From IMG/VR virus record IMGVR_UViG_2627853771_000002: a stretch of DNA of 15,132 bases; one strand, 5' to 3'. Source of the DNA: a virus. Its lineage: Duplodnaviria > Heunggongvirae > Uroviricota > Caudoviricetes. Each line of letters begins with the position of its first letter. Position 1 is the first letter of the stretch. The translations under genes and the position numbers were made by a program. The notes under the pieces were generated by a model. It was not told where the DNA came from, searched no databases, and saw only the letters and a program-made list of their open reading frames with translations. Shown here piece after piece: positions 1 through 13,220 of the stretch.

Positions 1-798
1 TTAATGAACATTCGTCGCCGAAAACGAGTCTGTATCATTAGTGCGATGCAGTCTCTGCAAAGGATCTTGTTGATAAAATTGGCAGAAACGTTGCCACAAT
101 GAAGGGAAACGAGGAGCAAAAAGTTCTGGGGCGCTAAAGAAATATTCAGAAAGTACGGCAAAACATTCAGCAGGATCACTGGCAGCATAAGCATCAATGC
201 TCGCCGCATTCTCGCCAACCAATTCGATTTCTTCCTGAATGTTGTTCATTGCAGCATGAAGATCGTGTTCCCAGCCAGCAACCTCACGCAACGGAATAAA
301 GGGAACTCCGCTGGCGCGATCGCCGTTACGGGTGTCCAGCTTATGAGCGACTTCATGAATAATCAGGTTAAAACCAGAAGCATCAAAAGAATCTTGTATA
401 TCCAACCAGTTCAAAACGATAGGCCCTTGCTGCCAGCTCTGACCTGACTGAACAATACGTTGGTTATGCACCAGACCGATATCGTCTTCCCATTCATCAT
501 CGACCACAAATGGCGCAGGATAAATTAAGACTTCATGAAAACCATCCAGCCATTCCAGTCCTAACTCCAGAACGGGTAGGCAAAATAGAAGTGCTATCCG
601 GCAGCTTCTTAATGAATCCAGTTCAAAGCCCTGTAAAGGAACAAGCCGCTTTTGCTGTAAAAAACGTTCGGCAAGAGTGACTAATTTGCTTTGTTCCTGT
701 TCCGTCAGACCCGTTAAAAGGGGGATCGATAGTGCTTCCTGCCAGGGAAGGGCAGTTTGATGTGCTGATTCTTGTACTTTCCAGGGCCACTTAATCAT
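1..798 (-). CDS. mtfA: MtfA-like zinc-dependent peptidase (Mlc titration factor A), complete
   Basis: Minus-strand ORF 1..837; likely start is the ATG at 798-796 giving MIKWPWK..., stop TAA at 3-1. Contains an HExxH metallopeptidase motif (HEVAH). Sequence recalled as E. coli MtfA/YeeI; not searched. Confidence 0.85.
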
Positions 799-891
799 CG
801 TTTTGCTCGCAAACTCGTCACTTGAACAAAATTGCACGGACAGGGACTGTTAAAATGCCAAATTTCCTGGCATCATGGCAACCATCTGAAC

Positions 892-981
892 GGAGAGATG
901 CCGGAGCGGCTGAACGGACCGGTCTCGAAAACCGGAGTAGGGGCAACTCTACCGGGGGTTCAAATCCCCCTCTCTCCGCCA
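892..981 (+). tRNA. serU: tRNA-Ser, anticodon CGA
   Basis: GGAGAGA...TCTCTCC acceptor stem, discriminator G and terminal CCA; anticodon loop CUCGAAA gives anticodon CGA; long variable arm typical of class II tRNA-Ser; TTCAAATCC T-loop. Folded by eye. Confidence 0.9.
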
Positions 982-1028
982 CTATTCAAACACTTACAGC
1001 ATTCCCTTTCAGTGACCTGCATCCCGAT

Positions 1029-1062
1029 GAGAAAAATTGAGAAAATCCACTGAGAAAAATTC
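1029..1062 (+). repeat. Three direct copies of GAGAAAA(A)T between the tRNA and the integrase gene; candidate integrase arm-type binding sites
   Basis: gagaaaaatt at 1029-1038, gagaaaatcc at 1039-1048, gagaaaaatt at 1053-1062, lying 48-81 bp past the tRNA 3' end and just beyond the integrase stop. Confidence 0.3.
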
Positions 1063-1093
1063 TAGCGCCGAAGCATGCTCCGACGCCAAAGAA

Positions 1094-2068
1094 TCATCTC
1101 ATTTTCTTGTTCAACGTGGGGCTGATTTTAACTTTCCTGTCGTAAACAAGTACCTGTGATTCTGTCTTATGACCACTGAATTTTTGCTTATCCCTGCCAG
1201 ATCCTTCATAGTCTGAGATCCCTTTAGCCTTTAGATCATGGAAGGTGCAATCAAGTGGCCTACCAAGTTCTTCAGAAGCCGCGTTTCTCGCTTTTCTCCA
1301 TGCTTCATTAAATCCCTTGTATGAATAACGCTCACCATACATTGTCCTGATAACAGGGCCATCCTGTCCCCATTCCCTGCAAATATCCACAGCCGCACTA
1401 AGACGCTCAGTCCAGGCTTTGATCTGTTTAATACCAGTTTTACCTTGCTGTATGAAAATTCCTTTATCAAGAATCTGATTCCAGTTCATTTTAAGAACAT
1501 CAGATACCCTTGCAGCGCAAAGATACGCAATTTCCATCGCGGCTTTAACTGCAGGTGTCGCATGAGTGAAGATAGCTATGTACTCTTCATCAGTTATGTA
1601 GCGGTCGCGCTGGGGTTTAGGAAACTTATCGACACCAACACACGGATTACCTGGTACATAACCACGCTGATAACCCCAGCGGTATACACGAGACATTGAA
1701 CTATGCTCGTGATTAGCCTGAACACGGCTTCTTTTACCACGTGCATCCATGTAGCGTCGGACGTGTTCTGGTTTAATGGCCTTTGCTTCTGCATCGCCGA
1801 AAACCGCTAACAAGTATTTTTCATGTGCCAGGTAATCTTTTTGTGTCCTGGGGGCAAGGTCTGCATAGTCAGCACTATTTAAAAATTTTTTCCACAATTG
1901 TTGAAAGGTGAGTAGTTTTTTTCGACCTTCAACGACTTTCTCGTAAGCTAACCAAACCTCCGCTTTAGAAGCGTTTGCTGGGGCTAGATTCTCGGTAGTA
2001 CCTCCTGGCTTCCAGTAGTAACCGGAAGGGCGGAAAAACACACCCTTCGGCATCCACTCATTCAGCAT
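1094..2068 (-). CDS. Tyrosine-type site-specific recombinase (phage integrase)
   Basis: Minus-strand ORF of about 324 aa; C-terminal region carries an integrase-like motif (FHDLKAKGISDY). It ends 113 bp from the tRNA 3' end and reads toward it, the usual prophage arrangement. Start taken as ATG at 2068-2066 (TTG at 2071 is also possible). Confidence 0.85.
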   Translation of the reverse strand: MLNEWMPKGVFFRPSGYYWKPGGTTENLAPANASKAEVWLAYEKVVEGRKKLLTFQQLWKKFLNSADYADLAPRTQKDYLAHEKYLLAVFGDAEAKAIKPEHVRRYMDARGKRSRVQANHEHSSMSRVYRWGYQRGYVPGNPCVGVDKFPKPQRDRYITDEEYIAIFTHATPAVKAAMEIAYLCAARVSDVLKMNWNQILDKGIFIQQGKTGIKQIKAWTERLSAAVDICREWGQDGPVIRTMYGERYSYKGFNEAWRKARNAASEELGRPLDCTFHDLKAKGISDYEGSGRDKQKFSGHKTESQVLVYDRKVKISPTLNKKMR

Positions 2069-2216
2069 CAATCACATCTTGGGATACAGACGCTTGGATA
2101 ATATCTGCTTCGCTATAGTCGCCCCGCATAACCAGAAAACGAGCCTCATCGGAGCAGAGGTAATCAACTGCCCCATCAAATTTCCCCTTGCTGGTTGGTT
2201 TGGTTACGTTGCTCAT
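2058..2216 (-). CDS. Small hypothetical protein (52 aa) in the excisionase position upstream of the integrase
   Basis: ATG at 2216-2214 preceded by GGTGGA; translation MSNVTKPTSKGKFDGAVDYLCSDEARFLVMRGDYSEADIIQASVSQDVIDAE. Its start overlaps the upstream stop as ATGA and its end overlaps the integrase start. Below the 60-aa cutoff of the ORF track. No recognisable Xis motif. Confidence 0.4.
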   Translation of the reverse strand: MSNVTKPTSKGKFDGAVDYLCSDEARFLVMRGDYSEADIIQASVSQDVIDAE

Positions 2217-2347
2217 GCTGTCCACCATTCAATAAACATGCAGATACCAACGGTTACTACGGCAATCAGCACCCAGCAGATCACATCTAACAGGGCGGCG
2301 AGCCGACGCAGGGTGTATTTGCTGTAATTCTCAGGTTCAAAATTCAT
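2213..2347 (-). CDS. Small single-pass membrane protein (44 aa)
   Basis: ATG at 2347-2345 preceded by GGAGG; translation MNFEPENYSKYTLRRLAALLDVICWVLIAVVTVGICMFIEWWTA with a hydrophobic C-terminal half. ATGA overlap with the ParB-like stop and with the next ORF's start. Confidence 0.4.
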   Translation of the reverse strand: MNFEPENYSKYTLRRLAALLDVICWVLIAVVTVGICMFIEWWTA

Positions 2348-3129
2348 TGCGCCTCCCCAAGCACCCAGCGCAGAGCCTCGGCATATTCGCCACTGGCATC
2401 TTCGAGTGCTTTTGTAATTTCTTTGCGGGTTTTCAGGCGCGGCTTTGCATCACCGAGGATCTGACGCTGACGCCGAGCTTTTTCATGGCCCGTGGTGCCG
2501 GCGGTCGCTGTCTCGATCTGCTTGACCTTCTCTCGTTGCTCTTCGGGTTTAAGCGATGCCAACTGACGCGCCTGGGTAACAGTGACCGTTCCGGACTCCA
2601 CTGCATCGCGAACAGCTTGGGTGGCATCCAGCAGTGACAGAGTTGCGCGTACGGTCTGGACACTCACGCCAAACATCAGCGCTAAATCATCCTCATCGTG
2701 CCCGCGCTCCAGCGCATCAGCCATTTTCTTTGCTCGGCCTAGCGGCGTATCTGCCTGGCGGATTTCGTTAGCACTTACCATCGCCTGCGCCATGCGAATG
2801 GCAGAGCCACGTTTAGGGACTCCCGGAACCAGTAACGGTTCTTTGCCCAATTTTGACAGACGCTTATTGGCTTCCAGTGTATGGCGCACACGCTGGCGAC
2901 CATCAACCACACAAGACAGCCCTGTTTCCGGGTCTTTCCAGACGATAATCGGCTCAAGAACGCCCTGGTCCATGATGTTCAGCACCATTGCCTCGCTGAT
3001 AGGCAGGTGGATACGCTCATCGTAAAGCGGGTGCGTTTTGTCGGTAACCAGGTGCAGTTTTTCAGGTTCAAACGCTAAAACGTTCGTTTTGCCACTCGCG
3101 CCATATACCAGCTTTGAGTCTTTAGCCAT
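2344..3129 (-). CDS. ParB-like nuclease-domain (ParB/Srx fold) protein
   Basis: 261-aa ORF with a ParB N-terminal-domain-like core (EPIIVWKDPETGLSCVVDGRQRVRH) and an HTH-like segment (DDLALMFGVSVQTVRATL). Start ATG at 3129 shares its A with the upstream gene's TGA (TGATG). Confidence 0.7.
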   Translation of the reverse strand: MAKDSKLVYGASGKTNVLAFEPEKLHLVTDKTHPLYDERIHLPISEAMVLNIMDQGVLEPIIVWKDPETGLSCVVDGRQRVRHTLEANKRLSKLGKEPLLVPGVPKRGSAIRMAQAMVSANEIRQADTPLGRAKKMADALERGHDEDDLALMFGVSVQTVRATLSLLDATQAVRDAVESGTVTVTQARQLASLKPEEQREKVKQIETATAGTTGHEKARRQRQILGDAKPRLKTRKEITKALEDASGEYAEALRWVLGEAQ

Positions 3130-3807: not shown

Positions 3808-3837
3808 TTGTGTGAAATAAAGCTAGTGTTTTTATGA

Positions 3838-3882
3838 TTATGGACGACGCTTTCTGAAATTCTCATCATTCTGTACATATTG
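3838..3882 (-). other. Orphaned native 3' end (14 codons plus stop) of the IS1-interrupted nuclease-like gene
   Basis: Joining the reading frame of CDS 4660-5769 across the target duplication continues ...L-QYVQNDENFRKRRP-stop, with TAA at 3840-3838. Confidence 0.45.
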
Positions 3883-3891
3883 TAAAGAATC
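3883..3891. repeat. IS1 target-site duplication, left copy (TAAAGAATC)
   Basis: The 9 bp immediately left of the IS1 end are identical to 4660-4668. Confidence 0.85.
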
Positions 3892-3946
3892 GGTGATGCT
3901 GCCAACTTACTGATTTAGTGTATGATGGTGTTTTTGAGGTGCTCCA

Positions 3947-4222
3947 GTGGCTTCTGTTTCTATCAGCTGTCCCTCCTGTTCAGCTACTGACGGGGTGGTG
4001 CGTAACGGCAAAAGCACCGCCGGACATCAGCGCTATCTCTGCTCTCACTGCCGTAAAACATGGCAACTGCAGTTCACTTACACCGCTTCTCAACCCGGTA
4101 CGCACCAGAAAATCATTGATATGGCCATGAATGGCGTTGGATGCCGGGCAACTGCCCGCATTATGGGCGTTGGCCTCAACACGATTTTACGTCACTTAAA
4201 AAACTCAGGCCGCAGTCGGTAA
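3947..4222 (+). CDS. insA: IS1 InsA
   Basis: 91-aa [43 protein letters not shown]..., recalled as IS1 InsA. Confidence 0.9.
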
Positions 4223-4644
4223 CCTCGCGCATACAGCCGGGCAGTGACGTCATCGTCTGCGCGGAAATGGACGAACAGTGGGGCTATGTCGGGGCTAAAT
4301 CGCGCCAGCGCTGGCTGTTTTACGCGTATGATAGTCTCCGGAAGACGGTTGTTGCGCACGTATTCGGTGAGCGCACTATGGCGACGCTGGGGCGTCTTAT
4401 GAGCCTGCTGTCACCCTTTGACGTGGTGATATGGATGACGGATGGCTGGCCGCTGTATGAATCCCGCCTGAAGGGAAAGCTGCACGTAATCAGCAAGCGA
4501 TATACGCAGCGAATTGAGCGGCATAACCTGAATCTGAGGCAGCACCTGGCACGGCTGGGACGGAAGTCGCTGTCGTTCTCAAAATCGGTGGAGCTGCATG
4601 ACAAAGTCATCGGGCATTATCTGAACATAAAACACTATCAATAA
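4141..4644 (+). CDS. insB: IS1 InsB (expressed as an InsAB' fusion by -1 frameshifting)
   Basis: 167-aa [28 protein letters not shown]... in the -1 frame relative to insA, overlapping its 3' end. Confidence 0.85.
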
Positions 4645-5769
4645 GTTGGAGTCATTACCTAAAGAATCAAGGATTAAACCTGAAATCCTTAATACATCCT
4701 CGGGATGTTCAATGAAAATACGATTGTTATCATGTTCAAGTCCGGCTCTTTTAATTTCATTACCGGTTATTTCATTGATATCAATTGGTAACTGTATGTT
4801 TGAGCGATTCTTCTTGTCATAATAGCGAACCAGCCAGCGGTTTGTTTTTCCTTGGAAAAGAATAGAGTAATAGGACTCTGTATCTTTGGCTTGAAGTTCG
4901 TATGCAGGGCCTATAATAGAACAGATTTTTTCAAATAAAATTCTTTCATTATAGGTTGTTACTATGTTGGGGTTCTCTGCATCGACAATATCTGCGCGCT
5001 CATCAATTACATTATTTTCAGTTACATCAGCAGGGGATTCTAATTCAGGAATAGATGTTCTTGATGAAAGACCAGAAACAACCATTTCACTTACTGACCT
5101 CTCTACGGCCTGCCTCACCAATGGAGTTATTGTTTCTATAAATCTTTGATTTAATTGACGACCAATATTTGCTCGTCCTGCAACATATCTAACAAATTCA
5201 TGATCTACTTCCCGAAGGCTTGTACTCACGACTTTAACAAATGCAGAAATATAAACACTCTCTTCTGCAAGGGTTCTTAGGGCCTCTGGTTTGAATTTGT
5301 CATGGCGGAATCTAAATAATTGCTCAGCATCAGAATCTTTAATGTCATCCATCATGATTCGTAAAAATGGCGTTGAATCCATTATATTTTTTTCATTGAG
5401 ATCCGTAAAAAAGCGCCATTCAATTCCATTAGTAATTGCTGATATTGTCACCTCAGGAGTAGAATTAAAATACCTAGATAATTGAGGACAATGGTTGTCC
5501 ATTTTTTCTTTACAACCTTTGGCCTCAATAAACATAACGGGAACACCTTGGCAGAATAGAGCATAATCTACACGCTCACCCACTTTCACACCAGGGAAGT
5601 CCGCACCATATTCAGCTTTGACTTTTTGCGGATCATATGCGTTAAAGCCTAGGATGTCCAAAAAAGGAAGTATCAAAGCCTGCTTGGTTGTCTCTTCCGT
5701 TGTGCAGTGTTCTCTAACATTTTTAACATGTTCAATGTGATTTTTAAGACGTACTTTGAAGTTTTCCAT
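4579..5769 (-). CDS. Repressor-linked protein with an HsdR-N-like PD-(D/E)xK nuclease N-terminal domain and an uncharacterised C-terminal domain; 3' end replaced by IS1 sequence
   Basis: ATG at 5769 (MENFKVRL...) after GGAGGA. The first 130 aa or so follow the pattern I associate with the type I restriction HsdR N-terminal nuclease fold (D...VDYALF...[10 protein letters not shown]...QLSRY...TNG). Codons 4660-5769 are native; 4579-4659 are read from the IS1 right end. Lies downstream of, and on the same strand as, the repressor gene, inside the operator-bounded immunity region. Confidence 0.6.
4660..4668. repeat. IS1 target-site duplication, right copy (TAAAGAATC)
   Basis: Identical to 3883-3891. 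Confidence 0.85.
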
Positions 5770-5939
5770 GCATCCTCCATGCAAAGTGAAAACCTGCTGT
5801 TAAATCAAAGCAAGTCACAATCCCGGATAGGCTTCATACAAGCCAATCCCCCACAGGGATTGAGTTATGCAAGCGAATCAATCTCAGAGCTTTTAACATG
5901 TATGGAGCTTAGAGATATTGTCCGTTAGACCATATAAGC

Positions 5940-6416
5940 TTAAGCTCTGGCTTTCGTTTGTTTTTTTCCATCTTCCTCCTGCTCTGCCCATCTCCTTATC
6001 TTCATCTCTAATGAGTCTAAATATGCTTTAGCATCGCTATCTACCCAGCCAGGTATACGCTGTCCTTGCTCTAAGAGGACAAAATCAATGATAGCCTTTT
6101 TTTCTCTCGAAGCCTTATTATAGAGCTCGTCAATAGAACCATTTTTAACTATGGGATCTGTTGCGGGCTCACATGTATCAGTTAGCGGGTATCCCTTTAG
6201 TCCCCAGTGCTCGGGGCCCACAACATCAGAAAAGTAGTTCCAAAGCTCTGGTAGCTTCTCTTTCGATATGGAGCCTTTATTGATCCAGTCATGGATTGAT
6301 GGGGGTTTTATTTTGAAATGACGTGCGATTTCCGCCTTACTCTTGGCAGAACCTATTGAAAGCTTCTTGTCTATGGCCTGCTCGATCGCTCGGCCCAATT
6401 CTTTACCACTAAGCAT
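5940..6416 (-). CDS. CI/RacR-like helix-turn-helix repressor with no S24 peptidase domain
   Basis: 158-aa ORF with an N-terminal HTH-like segment (LSGKELGRAIEQAIDKKLSIGSAKSKAEIARHFKIKPPSIHDW); no Ala-Gly/Ser-Lys autocleavage features seen. Divergent from a Cro/YdaS-like gene across an operator-containing region. Confidence 0.7.
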   Translation of the reverse strand: MLSGKELGRAIEQAIDKKLSIGSAKSKAEIARHFKIKPPSIHDWINKGSISKEKLPELWNYFSDVVGPEHWGLKGYPLTDTCEPATDPIVKNGSIDELYNKASREKKAIIDFVLLEQGQRIPGWVDSDAKAYLDSLEMKIRRWAEQEEDGKKQTKARA

Positions 6417-6443
6417 TGCCTAATAATCCTCATAACCTATAGC

Positions 6444-6486
6444 TTAGGCAATTCCTATTGATTGTTTATTAGGCTTAGCCTAATAT
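6444..6486. promoter_or_regulatory. OR-like operator region with a rightward promoter
   Basis: Perfect 8+3+8 palindrome TATTAGGC-TTA-GCCTAATA at 6467-6485 and a degenerate copy at about 6444-6459. -35 TTGATT (6458-6463), 17-bp spacer, -10 TAATAT (6481-6486); the palindrome sits in the spacer. Confidence 0.55.
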
Positions 6487-6517
6487 CTGCTTGTGTGGAA
6501 ATCATAGGAATCCGTTT

Positions 6518-6781
6518 ATGAGAAGTAGCCTTGAAGCAATCAGTGAAGCCTGCCGCATTGTTGGGGGACAAGCCGCTTTGTCAAGGAATCTAGGCATCTC
6601 ATCACCAACAGTGAATCAATGGACAACGGGCATTAGGCAAATACCTGCGGAACGATGTCCTGCGATTGAGAAAGCTACTGGTGGTGCTGTCACCTGCGAA
6701 GAGCTTCGTCCTGACATTGACTGGGCCTATTTAAGAGGTGCAGCAATGCGAAAGCTTAATGTCACTGCATCAAATTTGTAA
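6518..6781 (+). CDS. YdaS/Cro-like HTH regulator
   Basis: 87 aa from the ATG at 6518 (AGGAA seven nt upstream). Motifs GGQAALSRNLGISSPTVNQW...IPAERCPAIEKATGGAVTCEELRPD match my recollection of the YdaS/Cro-type family. The ORF track starts at a TTG at 6491. Confidence 0.7.
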   Translation: MRSSLEAISEACRIVGGQAALSRNLGISSPTVNQWTTGIRQIPAERCPAIEKATGGAVTCEELRPDIDWAYLRGAAMRKLNVTASNL

Positions 6782-6809
6782 CTACCACCCGAGTTTGAAA
6801 GGAGTAGGT

Positions 6810-7262
6810 ATGAACCTCAAAGAAGTCGTGAAATCTATGTGCAAAGCATATCCAGGTGGGCGCGAAGCAATGGCTGGCGCACTGGGAATGACGGTGACGC
6901 AGTTTAACAACAACCTTTACGAGAAAAACGGCTGTCGTTTCTTCGAAGTCAGCGAACTGGAAGCGATGGAGGACATCTCGAATACATCTCACCTGGCTGA
7001 ATATTTTGCCCGCCGTCGTGGTGCTCTGCTGGTGGATGTTCCGCACCTGGAAGAACTGGACCGCGTGGACTTGTTTAGCCGGGCAATGCGTACCTCTGCC
7101 GCCAGGGGGCAGGTTGATCAGATTATCGAACAGGCGCTTGAAGATGGCGTTATTGAAAGGCACGAGGCCGAAGAAATCATGGTGCATCACCGCCGTCACC
7201 TGGCAGCTCGTGAAGAAGAGATTGCCGCAATCATCACGCTTTTTTCACGCAAAAAGAAGTGA
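6810..7262 (+). CDS. CII-like / YdaT-like regulatory protein
   Basis: 150 aa from the ATG at 6810 (AAAGGAG five nt upstream), directly after the YdaS-like gene as in Rac-type prophages. Family assignment is from position and general resemblance only. Confidence 0.45.
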   Translation: MNLKEVVKSMCKAYPGGREAMAGALGMTVTQFNNNLYEKNGCRFFEVSELEAMEDISNTSHLAEYFARRRGALLVDVPHLEELDRVDLFSRAMRTSAARGQVDQIIEQALEDGVIERHEAEEIMVHHRRHLAAREEEIAAIITLFSRKKK

Positions 7263-7289
7263 CGCCAGCGAGTTGCAGCTCCTGGCGTC

Positions 7290-8129
7290 GTGGCGTGTCG
7301 TTATCAGTGGAGATTACTAACGCATGAACAGTTTATCAACACAATACCGCAGGTCGCAACTTGTAGCGCGGCCAGTTCCTGGTGGAGCAGGGCCGGTGCA
7401 GTTCGTGTAGAGCCATTCGTTGGTGGTGGGTCGGTATTCCTGAACAGCGAAAAGCACGCAGATTACCTGCTGGCGGACGTTAACCCGGACCTGATTAATC
7501 TGTATCAGATGTTAGCGGTCGTGCCGGATGAAGTGGAATTGAAGGCCCGCTGGATGTTCGAGCACATGCGGTCACCAGAGCGCTATGAGCTGATCCGTTC
7601 CGAGTTCAACTCTCAGACGCTGGATGCTACTGAACGCGCAGCTGCATTCCTGTATCTCAACCGGCATTGCTTCAATGGTCTGATGCGCTACAACCAGGCG
7701 AACAAGTTCAATGTGGGCTGGGGAGGCTACAAGGCTCCGTATTACCCGATGGATGAGATGAAAGCCTTCGCGGCTATGGCGCATAACTGCGTATTCATGA
7801 CGGCTGATTACCGCCGGACAATCAGCCTGGCCGGGAAAGGGGATGTGGTTTACTGCGATCCGCCTTACGAACCGATGCCGGGAACAACCGGATTCACCGC
7901 CTACGCCGCTGGTGGTTTTAACTGGGAGAACCAGGTAGACCTGGCGAAGCAATGCGTATCAGCCTTTCACCGTGGGGCTCGGGTAGTGATTTCTAACTCA
8001 TCTGCACCGAAGGTTCTCGACCTGTACCGGGAGCATGGTTTTAACCTGCAATTCATCAACGCGCGCCGTTCGATCTCCTGCAAAAGCAGTACGCGGGAAG
8101 TCGCAAAAGACGTTGTAGCGATCCTTTAA
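7290..8129 (+). CDS. DNA adenine methyltransferase (Dam family, N6-adenine)
   Basis: Motif I EPFVGGGSVFLN and motif IV CDPPYEP; overall resemblance to E. coli Dam (FLYLNRHCFNGLMRYN, ISNS). The only in-frame start after the upstream stop is the GTG at 7290; the nearest ATG (7324) is out of frame, so the start is uncertain. Confidence 0.75.
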   Translation: MACRYQWRLLTHEQFINTIPQVATCSAASSWWSRAGAVRVEPFVGGGSVFLNSEKHADYLLADVNPDLINLYQMLAVVPDEVELKARWMFEHMRSPERYELIRSEFNSQTLDATERAAAFLYLNRHCFNGLMRYNQANKFNVGWGGYKAPYYPMDEMKAFAAMAHNCVFMTADYRRTISLAGKGDVVYCDPPYEPMPGTTGFTAYAAGGFNWENQVDLAKQCVSAFHRGARVVISNSSAPKVLDLYREHGFNLQFINARRSISCKSSTREVAKDVVAIL

Positions 8130-8138
8130 GGGGGCTAA

Positions 8139-8981
8139 ATGAAACTGACTTTACCATTTCCACCGAGCGTAAATAGTTACTGGCGCGCCCCGAGCAAGGG
8201 ACCGCTGAAAGGCAGGCATCTGGTAAGCGAGACAGGGCGCAAGTTCCAGCAGGCAGCGAGAGCGGCGATTATTGAGCAACTGCGGGCCGTTCCCCGGCCA
8301 TCCTCAGATCTGGCCGAGGTTCACATAAACGTTGTTGAGGGCGCGGGGCTTGAGCTTGATCCTGATGATGATTCACAGGTTCTTAAAGCGATTGGTGGCG
8401 GTCGCCTGCTTAATATTGTCACCTTTACTAAGTCAGGGACTTACACTCCAACTAAAGGGACGAAAAGAGTGCGGGTGAAAGTTTGGGGAGCGGGGGGAGG
8501 TGGCCAGAATGCTCCAGTTAGTGTGGGCGCATCTGGAGGTTGTGCTGGTGGATTTTCGGAAGGGTTATTTAATATTTCTGATAACGAAACTATATCTGTG
8601 ACGATAGGTACTGGTGGCAGTGCTGTTGCTGCTGGTGTCTCGTCTAAAGGCGGGAATGGTGGTGATACAAGGTTCGGGAGTTTAATCTCAGCTACTGGAG
8701 GGAGTGGTGGCGGGGCTACAGTTCCTGCTGGAGGTATCGGAAGTGGCGGGAACATTTTAAATATTACTGGCGAAATATCTCAAGGTGGTCTGTATTATGG
8801 TTCTGATGCTTTTATTGGCGGGGCTGGAGGATCTGCATTTTCATCAACGGGTGGCAATGGCCACTTCGGTAGTTCTGGCGATGATGGCGGTTTCCCCGGC
8901 TCAGGTGGTGCCGGGGGGAATGGTAACTATTCATCAGGAAAAGGAGCGAATGGTTTAGTTTACCTTGAAGAGTTTTCCTGA
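8139..8981 (+). CDS. RusA-like N-terminal region fused in frame to a glycine-rich, fibre-like C-terminal region
   Basis: N-terminus MKLTLPFPPSVNSYWR... resembles the RusA resolvase N-terminus (ITLPWPPSNNRYYR), and ...GGGRLLNIVTFT resembles the RusA C-terminus. From about aa 110 the protein is a GGxGG-rich tract of about 170 aa. ATG at 8139 follows AAGGGGG. Confidence 0.5.
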   Translation: MKLTLPFPPSVNSYWRAPSKGPLKGRHLVSETGRKFQQAARAAIIEQLRAVPRPSSDLAEVHINVVEGAGLELDPDDDSQVLKAIGGGRLLNIVTFTKSGTYTPTKGTKRVRVKVWGAGGGGQNAPVSVGASGGCAGGFSEGLFNISDNETISVTIGTGGSAVAAGVSSKGGNGGDTRFGSLISATGGSGGGATVPAGGIGSGGNILNITGEISQGGLYYGSDAFIGGAGGSAFSSTGGNGHFGSSGDDGGFPGSGGAGGNGNYSSGKGANGLVYLEEFS

Positions 8982-10051
8982 TTATTTTTGCTTTGAGCGT
9001 CCGCCCTTATTTTTGCTCTAATTTTAATTAGTGGCTTGTCTATTAATATTACACAAACGATCCCAAGTGCAATTGATATTGGGTAGCCTAATAAAAAGAT
9101 GGATAAGCCACGATTTTCACCACCAATAGCAAGCCATGCTAGAAATCCACCAAAATATTGACAAAGAAAAATTGGATAGGCCAGGTCACCAAACCACTTG
9201 AGTATTTTCTCAAGATGTATGTTTGTCTTTATTTTTAATAATACCAGGGTTGTAAACAATGCTATTACATTATTGGTGTAGTAAAGTATTATGTTGTACT
9301 GACCTAATGGATTAATTGTATATAAATGCCAATTGGTAATAAAAATCCCGATGCAAATAAATGTTATTAAAAAAGCTTTGTGTGGAGAAAGATACATAGC
9401 TTTGAACTTTCTATGGGCAAAATAACCCAGAGAACCCATGCTAAAAGGAAGTGTTGCAGCAAGGAATGGGAAATACGCCATATCAAAAGAATGGTGTACT
9501 ACATATACGTAAGCATGATAAAGCAGTGAAAGCAGAATCGACGTAATGGCTGTAAATTTATTTCGGGCTATGAAAAGCCACAATAAAAAATAACATGTTA
9601 TCTCAACACCCACTGACCATGATGATGTGACTATTCTGAATCTATTACCATCAATAGCAAAGTGATAAATGGATGAAAAGGCACCGAATGGATTTGCTAC
9701 AGCATTATCAGAAAGGAAAGCCCAGGGGAAGATTAAGAGGTTTCCTAATAAATCTCCAGGTAAGAAATTGCCTGTCCAGTTTGAGTGGAATTCCTTTGCG
9801 GATGGAATTAATTTTATAATAAGAAAGCCCATGACGAGAAAAAATATATATGCCGGGAATAACCTCAGTATTCTATTTTTCCAAAACATAGAGAAGTTGA
9901 ACTTGTATGTTTCATGCAAAATGTATGTTATTAAAAAACCACTAATAACATAGAAGCAATTCACTGCAAAGTTGCCAAGTGCAGGTATGCGAGCCGTTAA
10001 GTGAAAAGCAATGACGCACGATGCCAAAAAAAACCTTATTAGGCCAAGCAT
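8960..10051 (-). CDS. Acyltransferase-3 family integral membrane protein (O-antigen O-acetyltransferase-like, Oac/OafA type)
   Basis: 363-aa very hydrophobic ORF with motifs typical of the family (RFFLASCVIAFH, FYVISGFLITY); strongly AT-rich relative to its flanks. Its 3' end overlaps the convergent glycine-rich ORF by about 22 bp. Confidence 0.75.
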   Translation of the reverse strand: MLGLIRFFLASCVIAFHLTARIPALGNFAVNCFYVISGFLITYILHETYKFNFSMFWKNRILRLFPAYIFFLVMGFLIIKLIPSAKEFHSNWTGNFLPGDLLGNLLIFPWAFLSDNAVANPFGAFSSIYHFAIDGNRFRIVTSSWSVGVEITCYFLLWLFIARNKFTAITSILLSLLYHAYVYVVHHSFDMAYFPFLAATLPFSMGSLGYFAHRKFKAMYLSPHKAFLITFICIGIFITNWHLYTINPLGQYNIILYYTNNVIALFTTLVLLKIKTNIHLEKILKWFGDLAYPIFLCQYFGGFLAWLAIGGENRGLSIFLLGYPISIALGIVCVILIDKPLIKIRAKIRADAQSKNNQENSSR

Positions 10052-10314
10052 TATTTTATCTCCGCGCCAATATCGCGCATTTTATTTATTACATTGTTAA
10101 GTTGCTCATCAGACAGAACAAGCTGAGCTGCAATATAAAACAGTATGTGTCTTGACATTACCCTGGGGCTCTCTCCGCCAGTGTATTTCCGCCATTGGCT
10201 ATCGCTGGCTACACCTGCGAGCCCTGCCATTTGGTTTCCGGAGTAATTTAGTGCGGATTTCAGTCTGGCTAAATCTTCCTGCGTTGGAGGGGTGTATTTA
10301 TTTATTAAAATCAT
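10051..10314 (-). CDS. Small XRE-type HTH protein co-transcribed with the acyltransferase
   Basis: 87 aa from the ATG at 10314 (track ORF starts at a GTG at 10338). HTH-like segment LARLKSALNYSGNQMAGLAGVASDSQWRKYTGGESPR. Its stop overlaps the acyltransferase start (TAATG). Confidence 0.5.
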   Translation of the reverse strand: MILINKYTPPTQEDLARLKSALNYSGNQMAGLAGVASDSQWRKYTGGESPRVMSRHILFYIAAQLVLSDEQLNNVINKMRDIGAEIK

Positions 10315-10415
10315 TCTCTTATTTAACCGTTTAAACACGTAAGGCGATGTTAGCCCTGAAGGGGCGGGGCGTCAATCTTAATTGCTTCATTGAAAAGATG
10401 AAGACAGGAACAGGT

Positions 10416-12410
10416 ATGGACAAAAGATATAATACCGGCAATCCAAGACCTTCAAATAGCATGAAGGATCTGAATGATAACGCCCTGGCGTACGATGATT
10501 TCCTGAACAGCGAAAGCGATACTTTTATAGATCGTTTTGGTAACGCCCAGGATACGATAATTGGGGCTACTAAAAAAATGGCAGCTGCTACCGACGCTGT
10601 TATTGATGAAGCCCGCCAAAACCTGATCCCTCTCAGCCGGCAGTACATGACGCTGGCGGCGGCGCAGGCGGATATTGCGAATATTCCGGCAGGTTCAACA
10701 ACCTATGTCCGCAGTCAGGACGGAAGCTCTCTGGCCGATGAGTATATCAACCTCGCTGGAACGCTGCAGCCAACCGGACGGCGGATGGTTCGTGACGACT
10801 ACGCATACCAGGTATCGCCAGACAGCGTGACCCTGGCAGCATATGATCCGGAGACTTCCCGCGTGGCTCCATTTTTAAATACAAGCGGCAGATTAATTCA
10901 AATCGGTCCTGACGGAAAATATTACGAACTTTTAACCCAACAAGAATCCGAACTCTATGCGCTGGGCCGGGAGGGTTCTATACCGCAGTTTATTGGCGGT
11001 GAAAAAGTGTGGCGGATGACGGTTGATTCAACCACAAACCAGATCGTTGAAGCTTATACGGTTGGTGGGAAGCACTGGATTTACTCAGACGGTGGCCTGG
11101 TAGCTGTTAATAACGGAAATGGCGGTGGTGGTGGCGACGATGATGCCAACCAGCTCCCTGAGTATGGACTTCATTTGTCAGGGTCTACTGTGTACCCCTA
11201 CTCAGAGACAGTGCCTGTATGTTTTATCTTTGTGACTGCTGGGCAATCCAACGCTCGAGGATATTGTCCTGACGCCGATCAAACCATTGTCGCAGCAACG
11301 CCGATATATCCTGATAACGCTTTCATGCTCAGCGGCGGGGTTAGGCGTACAGGGACACGCAGCACTACTCTGGTGCCACTGGTTGAGGCAGTAAGTGGGA
11401 CAGATAAAGAAACGGCCGCAAGCGGCCTCGCGAACACCTTCATTCGCGATATGGCTGCAGCTACCGGAATCATGCCGCGCACGCTATCAATCGTATGTGC
11501 GCAGTCTGGTCAGGCTTACGAGTACCAGAAACGGGGTAACCAGGTATATCAGTATCTGCTCGATTCAATCGAAGACTGCGTAACGGCCTGTAAAGCACGC
11601 GGCTGGCTGCCGATTGTTCTCTGCGTTGACTGGATGCAGGGAGAGTCCGACGAGGACTGGTCAGGATTACGAGAAGGAATGTATGAATCACGGATGAGGC
11701 AGTACCAGAGACAAATCACCAGCGACATCATCGCAAGAACGGGTCAAAACGAACCGCCGATTATCGCCATTACCCAGCTGGGGTATGTCAATGACGGGCA
11801 TGGTGCATTTACAGGCCAGTACGCGCGACTGGCGTCGACGCGATTGCACGGAAAAGAGCAATTCAGGCTGGTCAATAGTTTGTACCAGTACGATTTTATT
11901 TCAGACGGTCTGCACTTGACGTGTGCGGGCCAGAACCGGCGCGGAGCAGCTGTGGCGAGAGCGCTTCTCCAGGAGTGGTTTACGAGCGGCTGGTCAGGGA
12001 TGGTTCCGACCAGTTTCGTGTGGAACTCACCCACGCAGATACAAATCAATGTCCCAGCGTATACGAACCTGGTGCTGGACACGACTACGATCAACACCTC
12101 CGGTCTGGCCAATTACGGCTTTAGCTACACGGATGAGACTGGTGCTCCACCTGCTATATCGAGCATCGCGATCAGCTCGGACGGCAAGGGCGTGCTGATT
12201 AACCTGGCGACCGCCCCCTCTGGACGTTTTGGGCGCGTTTCCTATGCGACAGCAGAAAACCCACTTCAGAGCGGCGCATCTGTAAAACCTTCCGGGCGGA
12301 CTCTTGGTGCAAGAGGGTGTGTTCGATCTTCCGCTGGAATCATATGGGTGTATGACACATCCGTGACTCTTTACGACTGGCTCCCCGCTTTTCGTATTAA
12401 CGTTTTCTGA
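10416..12410 (+). CDS. Tail-fibre/tailspike-like protein with an internal SGNH/SASA-type carbohydrate esterase domain
   Basis: Esterase block motifs in order: GQSN (VTAGQSNARGY, nt about 11241-11252), QGESD (DWMQGESDED, nt about 11631-11651) and DxxH (SDGLHLT, nt about 11904-11918). A Gly/Asp linker (NGNGGGGGDDD) precedes the domain. Start taken as the ATG at 10416 (AGGAACAGG upstream); the maximal ORF begins at 10347. Confidence 0.55.
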   Translation: MDKRYNTGNPRPSNSMKDLNDNALAYDDFLNSESDTFIDRFGNAQDTIIGATKKMAAATDAVIDEARQNLIPLSRQYMTLAAAQADIANIPAGSTTYVRSQDGSSLADEYINLAGTLQPTGRRMVRDDYAYQVSPDSVTLAAYDPETSRVAPFLNTSGRLIQIGPDGKYYELLTQQESELYALGREGSIPQFIGGEKVWRMTVDSTTNQIVEAYTVGGKHWIYSDGGLVAVNNGNGGGGGDDDANQLPEYGLHLSGSTVYPYSETVPVCFIFVTAGQSNARGYCPDADQTIVAATPIYPDNAFMLSGGVRRTGTRSTTLVPLVEAVSGTDKETAASGLANTFIRDMAAATGIMPRTLSIVCAQSGQAYEYQKRGNQVYQYLLDSIEDCVTACKARGWLPIVLCVDWMQGESDEDWSGLREGMYESRMRQYQRQITSDIIARTGQNEPPIIAITQLGYVNDGHGAFTGQYARLASTRLHGKEQFRLVNSLYQYDFISDGLHLTCAGQNRRGAAVARALLQEWFTSGWSGMVPTSFVWNSPTQIQINVPAYTNLVLDTTTINTSGLANYGFSYTDETGAPPAISSIAISSDGKGVLINLATAPSGRFGRVSYATAENPLQSGASVKPSGRTLGARGCVRSSAGIIWVYDTSVTLYDWLPAFRINVF

Positions 12411-12419
12411 GGATAAAAA

Positions 12420-13220
12420 ATGAGACTGATTTACACACTAACTGGACTGAATAACCCCTTACTCCCTGTGTACTCACAAACAGCGGCAGAGAAAGCGATC
12501 TCAGAACTATCCCCATCAGTATGGACACCAGTGAAGACAGAGTTTCTAAAAATGGGGTCTGGTGCAAAAGTAGTAGCTATCTCTAACCGATTAGATGGCG
12601 GACTTTTCAAGTCACTGGAGACCCTCGAGCCATCCACAAAGCTGAATGGTTCTGTTTTGCAGGGGCTTAATTTCTCCGGTGCATCCGGCATGGCTGGTGA
12701 TACGGCGGTGGTTATGGACGCAAACATCAATACTTTTGCATTCATCTATCAGCTGCCAGGTGGGGCGCTTCCGGCTACGCCACAGGACAGAGCGGTTATC
12801 GCAACCCAGGAAAGCACACCTCATGGCGTCGGCATTCGTACAACGTCAGCAGGTTCATTCCCGATTTTTCTGAATGGAGGGATCGAGGCCGATCTGGCAT
12901 TTACTCCTAACAATATAGGGCAATCTTTATTCTGCGCTGTAGTTATGTGCTCTAACAAGGCTGCTGGATCCTATGCAATTGCATACCAGCGGTCAGATCA
13001 GTCTGCAGTGACCAGCCGACAAGTGACGGGCTATACAATCCCAGCGTATAGCCCGTCTCAAAAAATGAGTATTGGCGGAGCAGGCAATGGTTCAGTGTCT
13101 CCGTTAACATCCGTTTTGTCAGAATGTTTGGTTTTCCCCGGCAAATATGCATATGGGACCAGCACACTGGATGTCATCCTGGCATATCTGATGGAGAGGA
13201 TTGGAAAAATCACGGCCTAG
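12420..13220 (+). CDS. Hypothetical 266-aa protein co-transcribed with the fibre/esterase gene (possible fibre partner or assembly protein)
   Basis: ATG at 12420 lies 6 nt after GAGGA and 9 bp after the upstream stop. No recognisable motif. Confidence 0.5.
   Translation: MRLIYTLTGLNNPLLPVYSQTAAEKAISELSPSVWTPVKTEFLKMGSGAKVVAISNRLDGGLFKSLETLEPSTKLNGSVLQGLNFSGASGMAGDTAVVMDANINTFAFIYQLPGGALPATPQDRAVIATQESTPHGVGIRTTSAGSFPIFLNGGIEADLAFTPNNIGQSLFCAVVMCSNKAAGSYAIAYQRSDQSAVTSRQVTGYTIPAYSPSQKMSIGGAGNGSVSPLTSVLSECLVFPGKYAYGTSTLDVILAYLMERIGKITA

Follow-up and report, generated by a model that had tools for sequence, protein, structure and literature searches.

A rusA fragment joined in frame to a tail fibre gene as a probable deletion scar in a decayed Escherichia coli prophage

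The stretch of DNA analysed here (15,132 nucleotides, hereafter the window) carries an open reading frame of 280 codons in which RusA residues 1-63 are joined to residues 45-261 of a glycine-rich tail fibre protein. We consider it highly probable (roughly 0.9) that this ORF is the fusion scar of one illegitimate deletion in a decayed E. coli prophage. According to the proposed mechanism, a prophage integrated at tRNA-Ser, between mtfA and yodB, would have undergone a single deletion with 2 nt of microhomology, with one end at codon 63 of rusA, in the nin or early-right region, and the other at codon 44 of the fibre gene, distally in the late operon. Roughly 20-25 kb would have been lost, comprising the antiterminator and the genes for lysis, packaging, head, tail and baseplate, and the chimera would have been left behind the native rusA translation signals in an early-right operon under the control of a RacR-type repressor, where a product, if any, would be expected only on derepression. 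Such a product would be neither resolvase nor fibre, and the chimera would be a passenger pseudogene, persisting because the event is recent and because the adjacent cargo, an acyltransferase and a SASA-type esterase, is retained. The original prediction had likewise proposed that a large internal deletion fused the nin region to a distal fibre gene, and this is supported by the identification of both parents and of a break at a single point. The features of the window, which were assigned from Pfam/NCBIfam-type profile scans and RefSeq annotation, with the tRNA found by ARAGORN, are collected in Table 1.

Table 1. Coordinates of the chimeric ORF, its parts and the surrounding prophage genes in the window
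Feature	Position	Strand	Basis
tRNA-Ser(CGA), left attachment site of the defective prophage	892..981	+	ARAGORN
Integrase	1094-2071	-	Pfam Phage_integrase
ParB-like gene	2344-3129	-	
IS1 copy	about 3891-4659		Pfam DDE_Tnp_IS1; 99% identical to an IS1A copy in L003
Truncated HSDR_N-domain gene, 401-aa ORF	4579-5784	-	
RacR-type repressor	5940-6416	-	
YdaS/Cro-like gene	6491-6781	+	
YmfL/CII-like gene	6738-7262	+	
Prophage Dam methylase, directly upstream of rusA in the early-right operon	7290..8129	+	Pfam MethyltransfD12, 1.3e-45; same dam-rusA order in p10A
Native rusA ribosome-binding site AAGGGGG	8128..8134	+	Read from sequence; same upstream of intact rusA in p10A
Chimeric ORF, 280 aa	8139-8981	+	ATG start
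rusA 5' fragment, codons 1-63 (M1...V61 H62 I63)	8139..8327	+	DNA identity to p10A rusA
Deletion junction, dinucleotide TA common to both parents	8326..8327	+	Three-way DNA alignment; BLAST ends 8327 (rusA), 8326 (fibre)
3' part of glycine-rich short tail fibre gene, codons 45-261 of WP_001310746.1 plus stop	8328..8981	+	DNA identity
Predicted TNF-like plus glycine-rich receptor-binding domain (Gly_rich_2, aa 99-276)	8433..8966	+	PF21722, AlphaFold2, Foldseek
Acyltransferase-3 family gene, convergent with the fibre gene	8960..10051	-	Pfam Acyl_transf_3; 100% identical to HS
SASA-type esterase, 687 aa, SASA/SGNH-type sialate O-acetylesterase-like	10347-12410	+	
Hypothetical gene, 266 aa	12420-13220	+	No family match
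Integrase fragment and umuD-like remnants	3' of 13220		

The junction was placed by a megablast search of window positions 7800-9300 against 5,426 complete E. coli genomes. The entire stretch, including the same junction, was present in nine of these genomes at 99.9% identity, while 62 further genomes, HS included, matched only from query position 527, corresponding to window position 8326. Positions 8100-8330 matched 49 genomes, 40 of them without the fusion, and in these 40 the match ended at 8326-8327, inside an intact gene, annotated as a 'RusA family crossover junction endodeoxyribonuclease', with a Dam methylase gene upstream of it. With the break written as a slash, the rusA parent reads ...GAG GTT CAC ATA / GTG TTG TAT... 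and the fibre parent ...GAG CTG GTA / AAC GTT GTT GAG..., and the window reads ...GAG GTT CAC ATA AAC GTT GTT GAG.... Because TA alone is common to the two parents, the join is illegitimate, with 2 nt of microhomology, and because the breakpoints in both parents fall at codon position 2-3, in the same phase, the frame was kept. An in-frame outcome is expected by chance in one case out of three and requires no special explanation. There is thus a single sharp break, both parental genes are identified, and the join is in frame.

Comparison with intact relatives gave the deletion endpoints, as anticipated, at rusA codon 63 and fibre codon 44. The junction itself had been predicted near residue 105 (nt 8400-8500) and actually lies some 100-150 nt upstream of this, at 8326/8327. 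A composition profile, which had been suggested as a further check, did display a shift, with GC content dropping from 0.58 to 0.49-0.50 and GC skew going up across the junction, but this shift does not mark the junction: the skew increase is greatest in the Gly-codon-rich domain (8400-8900), so that it reflects the glycine codons of the domain rather than the join, and windows of 300 nt are by themselves insufficient to place the break.

To the left of the junction, positions 8139-8327 match rusA of E. coli p10A (L003:20040-20228) at 188 of 189 nt (99.5% identity). The p10A parent is an intact RusA of 125 aa, and its Pfam PF05866 score of 59.3 bits exceeds the cut-off of 22.8. Residues 1-63 alone gave no RusA match in Pfam at E <= 10, the 280-aa ORF gave none even at E <= 1, and neither the stub nor the whole ORF matched RusA when NCBIfam was scanned together with Pfam, so that descent from rusA is shown at the DNA level. 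It is seen in the nucleotide homology, in the nin-region position after dam, and in the presence of the same dam gene and ribosome-binding site upstream, the GGGGG core of the latter lying at 8130-8134, just 3' of the dam stop codon (8127-8129), which the full AAGGGGG motif overlaps.

The RusA part had been expected to span about 100 residues and to include both N- and C-terminal signature segments of the family. The N-terminus is indeed derived from RusA, as its DNA match indicates, but it comprises only 63 residues, and the apparent C-terminal signature, DDSQV at residues 76-80, belongs to the fibre. This motif resembles the DDSQV/DDAQV of RusA but lies where the DNA of the window and of the parental fibre gene are identical, and BLASTP of residues 64-280 against intact RusA returned only a 10-residue match (E = 0.15 in a single pairwise comparison). 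An extension of RusA to residue 117, as given by tblastn alignments of the chimera to phage RusA genes over query residues 1-117, was rejected as chance, the matches past residue 63 being scattered ones around DDSQV.

The intact p10A RusA aligns end to end with the E. coli RusA of PDB 1Q8R, and I63 of the window corresponds to I59 of the E. coli protein. The residues that we take to be catalytic in E. coli RusA are D70, D72 and D91, with K76, located in the RRRD-L/I-DN and DDA/SQV segments. The equivalents of all four lie 3' of the truncation point, in the deleted half, and fibre sequence stands there instead. Judged from sequence and from established knowledge of RusA, the stub is devoid of any catalytic residue and would be a pseudogene fragment, not a resolvase; RefSeq also annotates the RusA piece as a pseudogene without a C-terminus. 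In comparison with E. coli DLP12 RusA (PDB 1Q8R, PF05866), the window retains the first 63 codons, the early-right or nin position after dam and the native ribosome-binding site, whereas it differs in being truncated at the I59 equivalent, in the loss of the catalytic residues and in having no Pfam match.

To the right of the junction, positions 8328-8981 are identical to E. coli HS (L002:12003-12656) at 653 of 654 nt (99.85%) and match Ec1117 (L005:44268-44921) at 99.7%, with the HS/Ec1117 fibre gene matching the window from 8326 past the end of the ORF at 99.98%. The parental protein, WP_001310746.1, is 261 aa long, has its own start codon and is encoded in HS and Ec1117 directly after Mu-like baseplate genes (gp45-like, gp46, J/gp47 and YmfQ). 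Its first ~66 residues are shared with tail or tail-collar fibre proteins of Serratia, Citrobacter, Pantoea and Pseudomonas phages; in this tblastn search of phages only the N-terminal module matched, and the low-complexity filter probably masked the glycine-rich part. The sole PDB relative of the intact fibre by sequence was cyanophage Pam3 gp24 (7YPX/7YFW; E = 0.0017, residues 41-261). On the basis of the N-terminal relatives, the sequence match to Pam3 gp24 and the fold match described below, WP_001310746.1 is a short tail fibre. No Tfa-type chaperone gene was found after the fibre gene.

Pfam recognised a single domain in the 280-aa product, Gly_rich_2 (PF21722, residues 99-276, 43.3 bits against a cut-off of 24.3), and glycine accounts for 31% of residues 99-280. 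The AlphaFold2 model of the chimera is of low confidence over residues 1-89 (pLDDT 38-71) and of high confidence over residues 90-280 (pLDDT 85-98). The best Foldseek matches of this model in the PDB were to the Pam3 fibre (7YPX_A, E = 2.8e-9, and 7YFW), followed by Bxb1 tail-tip proteins and the TNF-like/glycine-rich domains of ALK and LTK, and RusA was not among them. The chimera is accordingly modelled with a TNF-like plus glycine-rich fold. Of the earlier description of this tract as fibre-like or collagen-like, the first term holds, in that PF21722 is a genuine fibre domain, but a collagen-like tract was rejected given this defined fold. The predicted distal domain (residues 90-280) has a fold in common with Bxb1 tail-tip proteins and with the TNF-like/glycine-rich domains that bind ligand in two human receptor kinases, ALK and LTK, the link to ALK and LTK being drawn solely from the Foldseek fold search of the model.

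In Pam3 gp24, the N-terminal helical domain is the part that docks to the baseplate (PMC9608196). The chimera is missing residues 1-44 of the 261-aa parent, out of the conserved module of ~66 residues, so that by comparison with Pam3 gp24 it would keep the receptor-binding end without the first 44 residues of the docking end, and the Pam3 gp24 structure suggests that baseplate docking would have been lost with these residues. A location after the baseplate genes of a tail operon is seen in the parents HS and Ec1117 but not in the window. Relative to Pam3 gp24, the single-protein tail fibre of minimal myophages, residues 64-280 of the chimera retain the neck and the TNF-like/glycine-rich distal domain, and the intact parent occupies the fibre slot after Mu-like baseplate genes; in contrast, the chimera has a RusA stub in place of the first 44 docking residues, and no baseplate or virion genes are left in the prophage. 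As read from its sequence, the product of the chimera would probably be unable to do either parental job.

The junction peptide of the chimera reads ...AEVHINVVEGAGLELDPDDDSQVLK. Scans of positions 5800-10500 for consensus promoters and terminators gave counts no higher than those in shuffled sequence, and no signal peptide or other surface route is apparent in the translation of the ORF.

The fusion is widely distributed. The exact window protein is present in GenBank as AKM35533.1, 'hypothetical protein PCN061_2041', from E. coli PCN061, and fusion alleles occur on at least ~500 contigs (about 386 + 90 + 28) from several sources. The nine fusion-bearing complete genomes were sequenced independently, from pig, dog, human, river water and salad. 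A chimeric contig of two unrelated prophage regions, produced in assembly or sequencing, could look like a fusion, but nothing specific points to one here, and such an artefact is extremely improbable in light of the identical junction in these nine genomes and of the exact protein or single-residue variants on >500 contigs of several origins.

Six 280-aa alleles were aligned. Since the junction is common to all of them, they go back to one event inherited within E. coli, and since both parents are found at >99% DNA identity, that event is very recent. None of the 6 alleles has a stop or frameshift that would close the frame, and single amino-acid (non-synonymous) changes set the others apart from the commonest allele. 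At about one substitution per allele, recency and constraint are not separable from these data; an open frame in all six would also be expected under weak selection for the product. The window itself differs at codon 212 (8772-8774), which is GAA (Glu) rather than the GGA (Gly) of the parental fibre and the commonest fusion allele. This substitution, G212E, falls inside the glycine-rich motif ITGGISQGG; although only a single change, it fits relaxed constraint.

We also searched for the same architecture elsewhere. In a tblastn search of the chimera against 50,697 phage records, no place covered at least 80% of the query, no record spanned both halves, and the strong matches were all to RusA genes. 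A word-seeded search covered 5.8 billion protein clusters, of which 8,000 candidates were scored; among the scored proteins, the full architecture was found in only one cluster, P0001, which is 99% identical to the chimera, has 63 member sequences and represents the same fusion. Four other clusters with 84-94% coverage (P0006, P0011, P0020 and P0022) begin as ordinary fibres do, with MAxNDFKPFAxGxGANV..., and show no RusA-like sequence. Full-length homologues of this architecture in intact phages, which would have spoken for a genuine two-domain protein, were thus not found in these searches, and the interpretation as a fusion scar stands.

The search also recovered a second, independent in-frame fusion, P0007, on an ENA contig of 1554 bp, in which residues 1-350 of a Mu gpN-like DNA circularization protein are followed by the last 84 residues of the fibre. 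When compared with Ec1117 (L005:38794-39843 and L005:44661-44912), the intervening baseplate genes are gone. Together with the fused fragments in HS described below, P0007 shows that deletion scars recur in this prophage family.

These data bear on whether the ORF might encode a true two-domain protein under selection, or a chimera that has been exapted, with a glycine-rich receptor-binding domain made from the early operon to the benefit of host or prophage, superinfection exclusion being one example. The frame open in all six aligned alleles, the occurrence of fusion alleles on hundreds of contigs, the retention of the native ribosome-binding site and a C-terminal domain that is predicted to fold with confidence would all be consistent with such a protein. 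However, no diverged homologue with this architecture was found, the >99% DNA identity of the parents makes the event very recent, and the differences among alleles, including G212E, are single and non-synonymous; moreover, the RusA part is without catalytic residues and is modelled with low confidence, and the sequence has no apparent signal peptide or surface route. We therefore regard selection for the product as very improbable. Somewhat less credible again is the specific proposal that the chimera is expressed from the early-right operon and that its predicted TNF-like/glycine-rich domain has been co-opted, for instance to give a soluble receptor-binding protein with effects on envelope biology or superinfection, although co-option, if true, would explain an open frame across hundreds of isolates.

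The history of the proposed deletion can be followed in related prophages. E. coli HS carries, at the same chromosomal site, the tRNA-Ser and the integrase 3' end as in window positions 1-1672 (99.94%), and its right end is the window from 8326 onward (99.985%). Between these ends, HS retains terminase, portal, protease, decoration and baseplate genes, and the entire early region is missing. In the integrase 3' end, HS has one mismatch to the window in 579 nt (99.8%) and p10A has six in 579. Given that HS has both ends in common with the window but a different deletion, HS and the window lineage are complementary deletion derivatives, and they look like remnants of one ancestral prophage. Deletion has also scarred the HS remnant itself in at least two places (L002 ~328 and 7504-7578; L004 6945-7523): an integrase cut at the equivalent of window position 1672 and joined to a partial hypothetical gene before the terminase, and an enlarged 'head decoration' gene that contains a fragment of the circularization protein.

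Ec1117 contains an apparently complete relative of 45 kb at another site, yecE/yecD. Its genes run in the order int, xis, exo/bet/gam, repressor, cro, cII, replication genes, a nin region with rusA, Q, tRNAs and lysis, followed by terminase, head, sheath, tube, tape measure, circularization protein, baseplate, an identical 261-aa fibre protein, acyltransferase and SGNH esterase. DY612 is laid out like Ec1117, but another fibre fills the slot. From rusA codon 63 to fibre codon 44, the distance in Ec1117 is ~23.5 kb; because no undeleted ancestor, with this rusA allele and an HS-type late region in one prophage, was found among the matches listed, the size of the deletion is extrapolated from this mosaic relative. 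SfV-like temperate myophages combine a lambdoid early region, a Mu-like tail and surface-modification genes at the right end. Ec1117 and DY612 have such a layout, with a membrane acyltransferase and an SGNH/SASA esterase past the fibre gene, whereas the window has only the two genome ends.

The left module of the window (integrase, ParB, YmfL, dam and rusA) is 93-99% identical to the p10A prophage at the same site, the late genes of which are quite different, being of the HK97/siphovirus type. This raises a variant in which the same type of scar arose by deletion across two tandem prophages at tRNA-Ser, with a Klebsiella-type lambdoid newcomer (integrase to rusA) beside a resident HS-type remnant. 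Such an origin would account for the identity to a same-site prophage with HK97/siphovirus-type late genes, for the many left-module proteins whose accession numbers recur in Klebsiella phages, and for the lack, among the matches listed, of a genome in which this rusA allele and this late region occur undeleted. On the other hand, in HS, this integrase 3' end and the late region are found together at one att site, which is most simply explained by one ancestral prophage; just one pair of att repeats flanks the island; and a lambdoid early region, a Mu-like tail and this fibre form a natural single-phage architecture in the intact relatives. We therefore consider a tandem origin unlikely, and it alters the history of the scar, not its nature.

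Deletion from a single prophage, the reading that we prefer, is routine prophage decay by illegitimate deletion, of an already known kind that is half-recognised by RefSeq. As a textbook example of prophage decay it carries little biological weight. The mapped junction and the complementary HS deletions do provide a marker for prophage history at tRNA-Ser/mtfA-yodB in this E. coli lineage. Further practical value lies in a caveat on annotation: because the join is by chance in frame, gene calling yields a plausible protein of 280 aa, and the names 'phage tail protein' and 'hypothetical protein', under which 8139-8981 (280 aa) appears publicly, conceal its chimeric nature. Newer PGAP runs give a RusA pseudogene followed by a 168-170-aa 'glycine-rich domain-containing protein' that starts at an internal GTG, the latter probably being an annotation artefact.

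The wider gene content of the window is that of a defective prophage. The window starts at mtfA, and Pfam scans detected no Q, lysis, terminase, head, tail or baseplate genes in it, in agreement with the original observation that late, lysis and head genes are absent. Deletion-truncated genes are a feature of prophage decay in the cryptic E. coli prophages Rac, e14, DLP12 and Qin. The window resembles these in its integrase and repressor remnant, in the loss of late genes by large deletions and IS insertions, in the right-end cargo that was kept, and in the presence of a RacR-type repressor and YdaS/YmfL-type regulators; it differs in that the deletion here is in frame.

The right-end cargo (8960-13220) is intact and 100% identical to HS, and the membrane acyltransferase overlaps the 3' end of the fibre gene by 22 nt, as it does in the undeleted parents HS and Ec1117. 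This cargo may be a surface-glycan modification (lysogenic conversion) module, and the prophage may owe the survival of its right end to the retention of these genes. The 3' part of tRNA-Ser is repeated, imperfectly and in direct orientation, over 78 nt (94.9%): one copy is at window positions 920-996 and the other at L001 16604-16681, just past the right end of the window, and the two mark attL and attR of the defective prophage island; RefSeq labels the right copy 'tRNA-OTHER'.

On the left side of the island, the HSDR_N ORF is of low GC content (0.34-0.40), its 3' end is abutted by IS1 (window 3827-5709 region), and it is annotated as a 'type I restriction endonuclease' in CP145662. Its place, flanked by the ParB side and by the RacR repressor, is a slot typical of morons or defence genes. 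In the sister genome L001, ISKpn26 occupies the place of IS1, indicating that the fusion-bearing lineage has been diversified by IS traffic.
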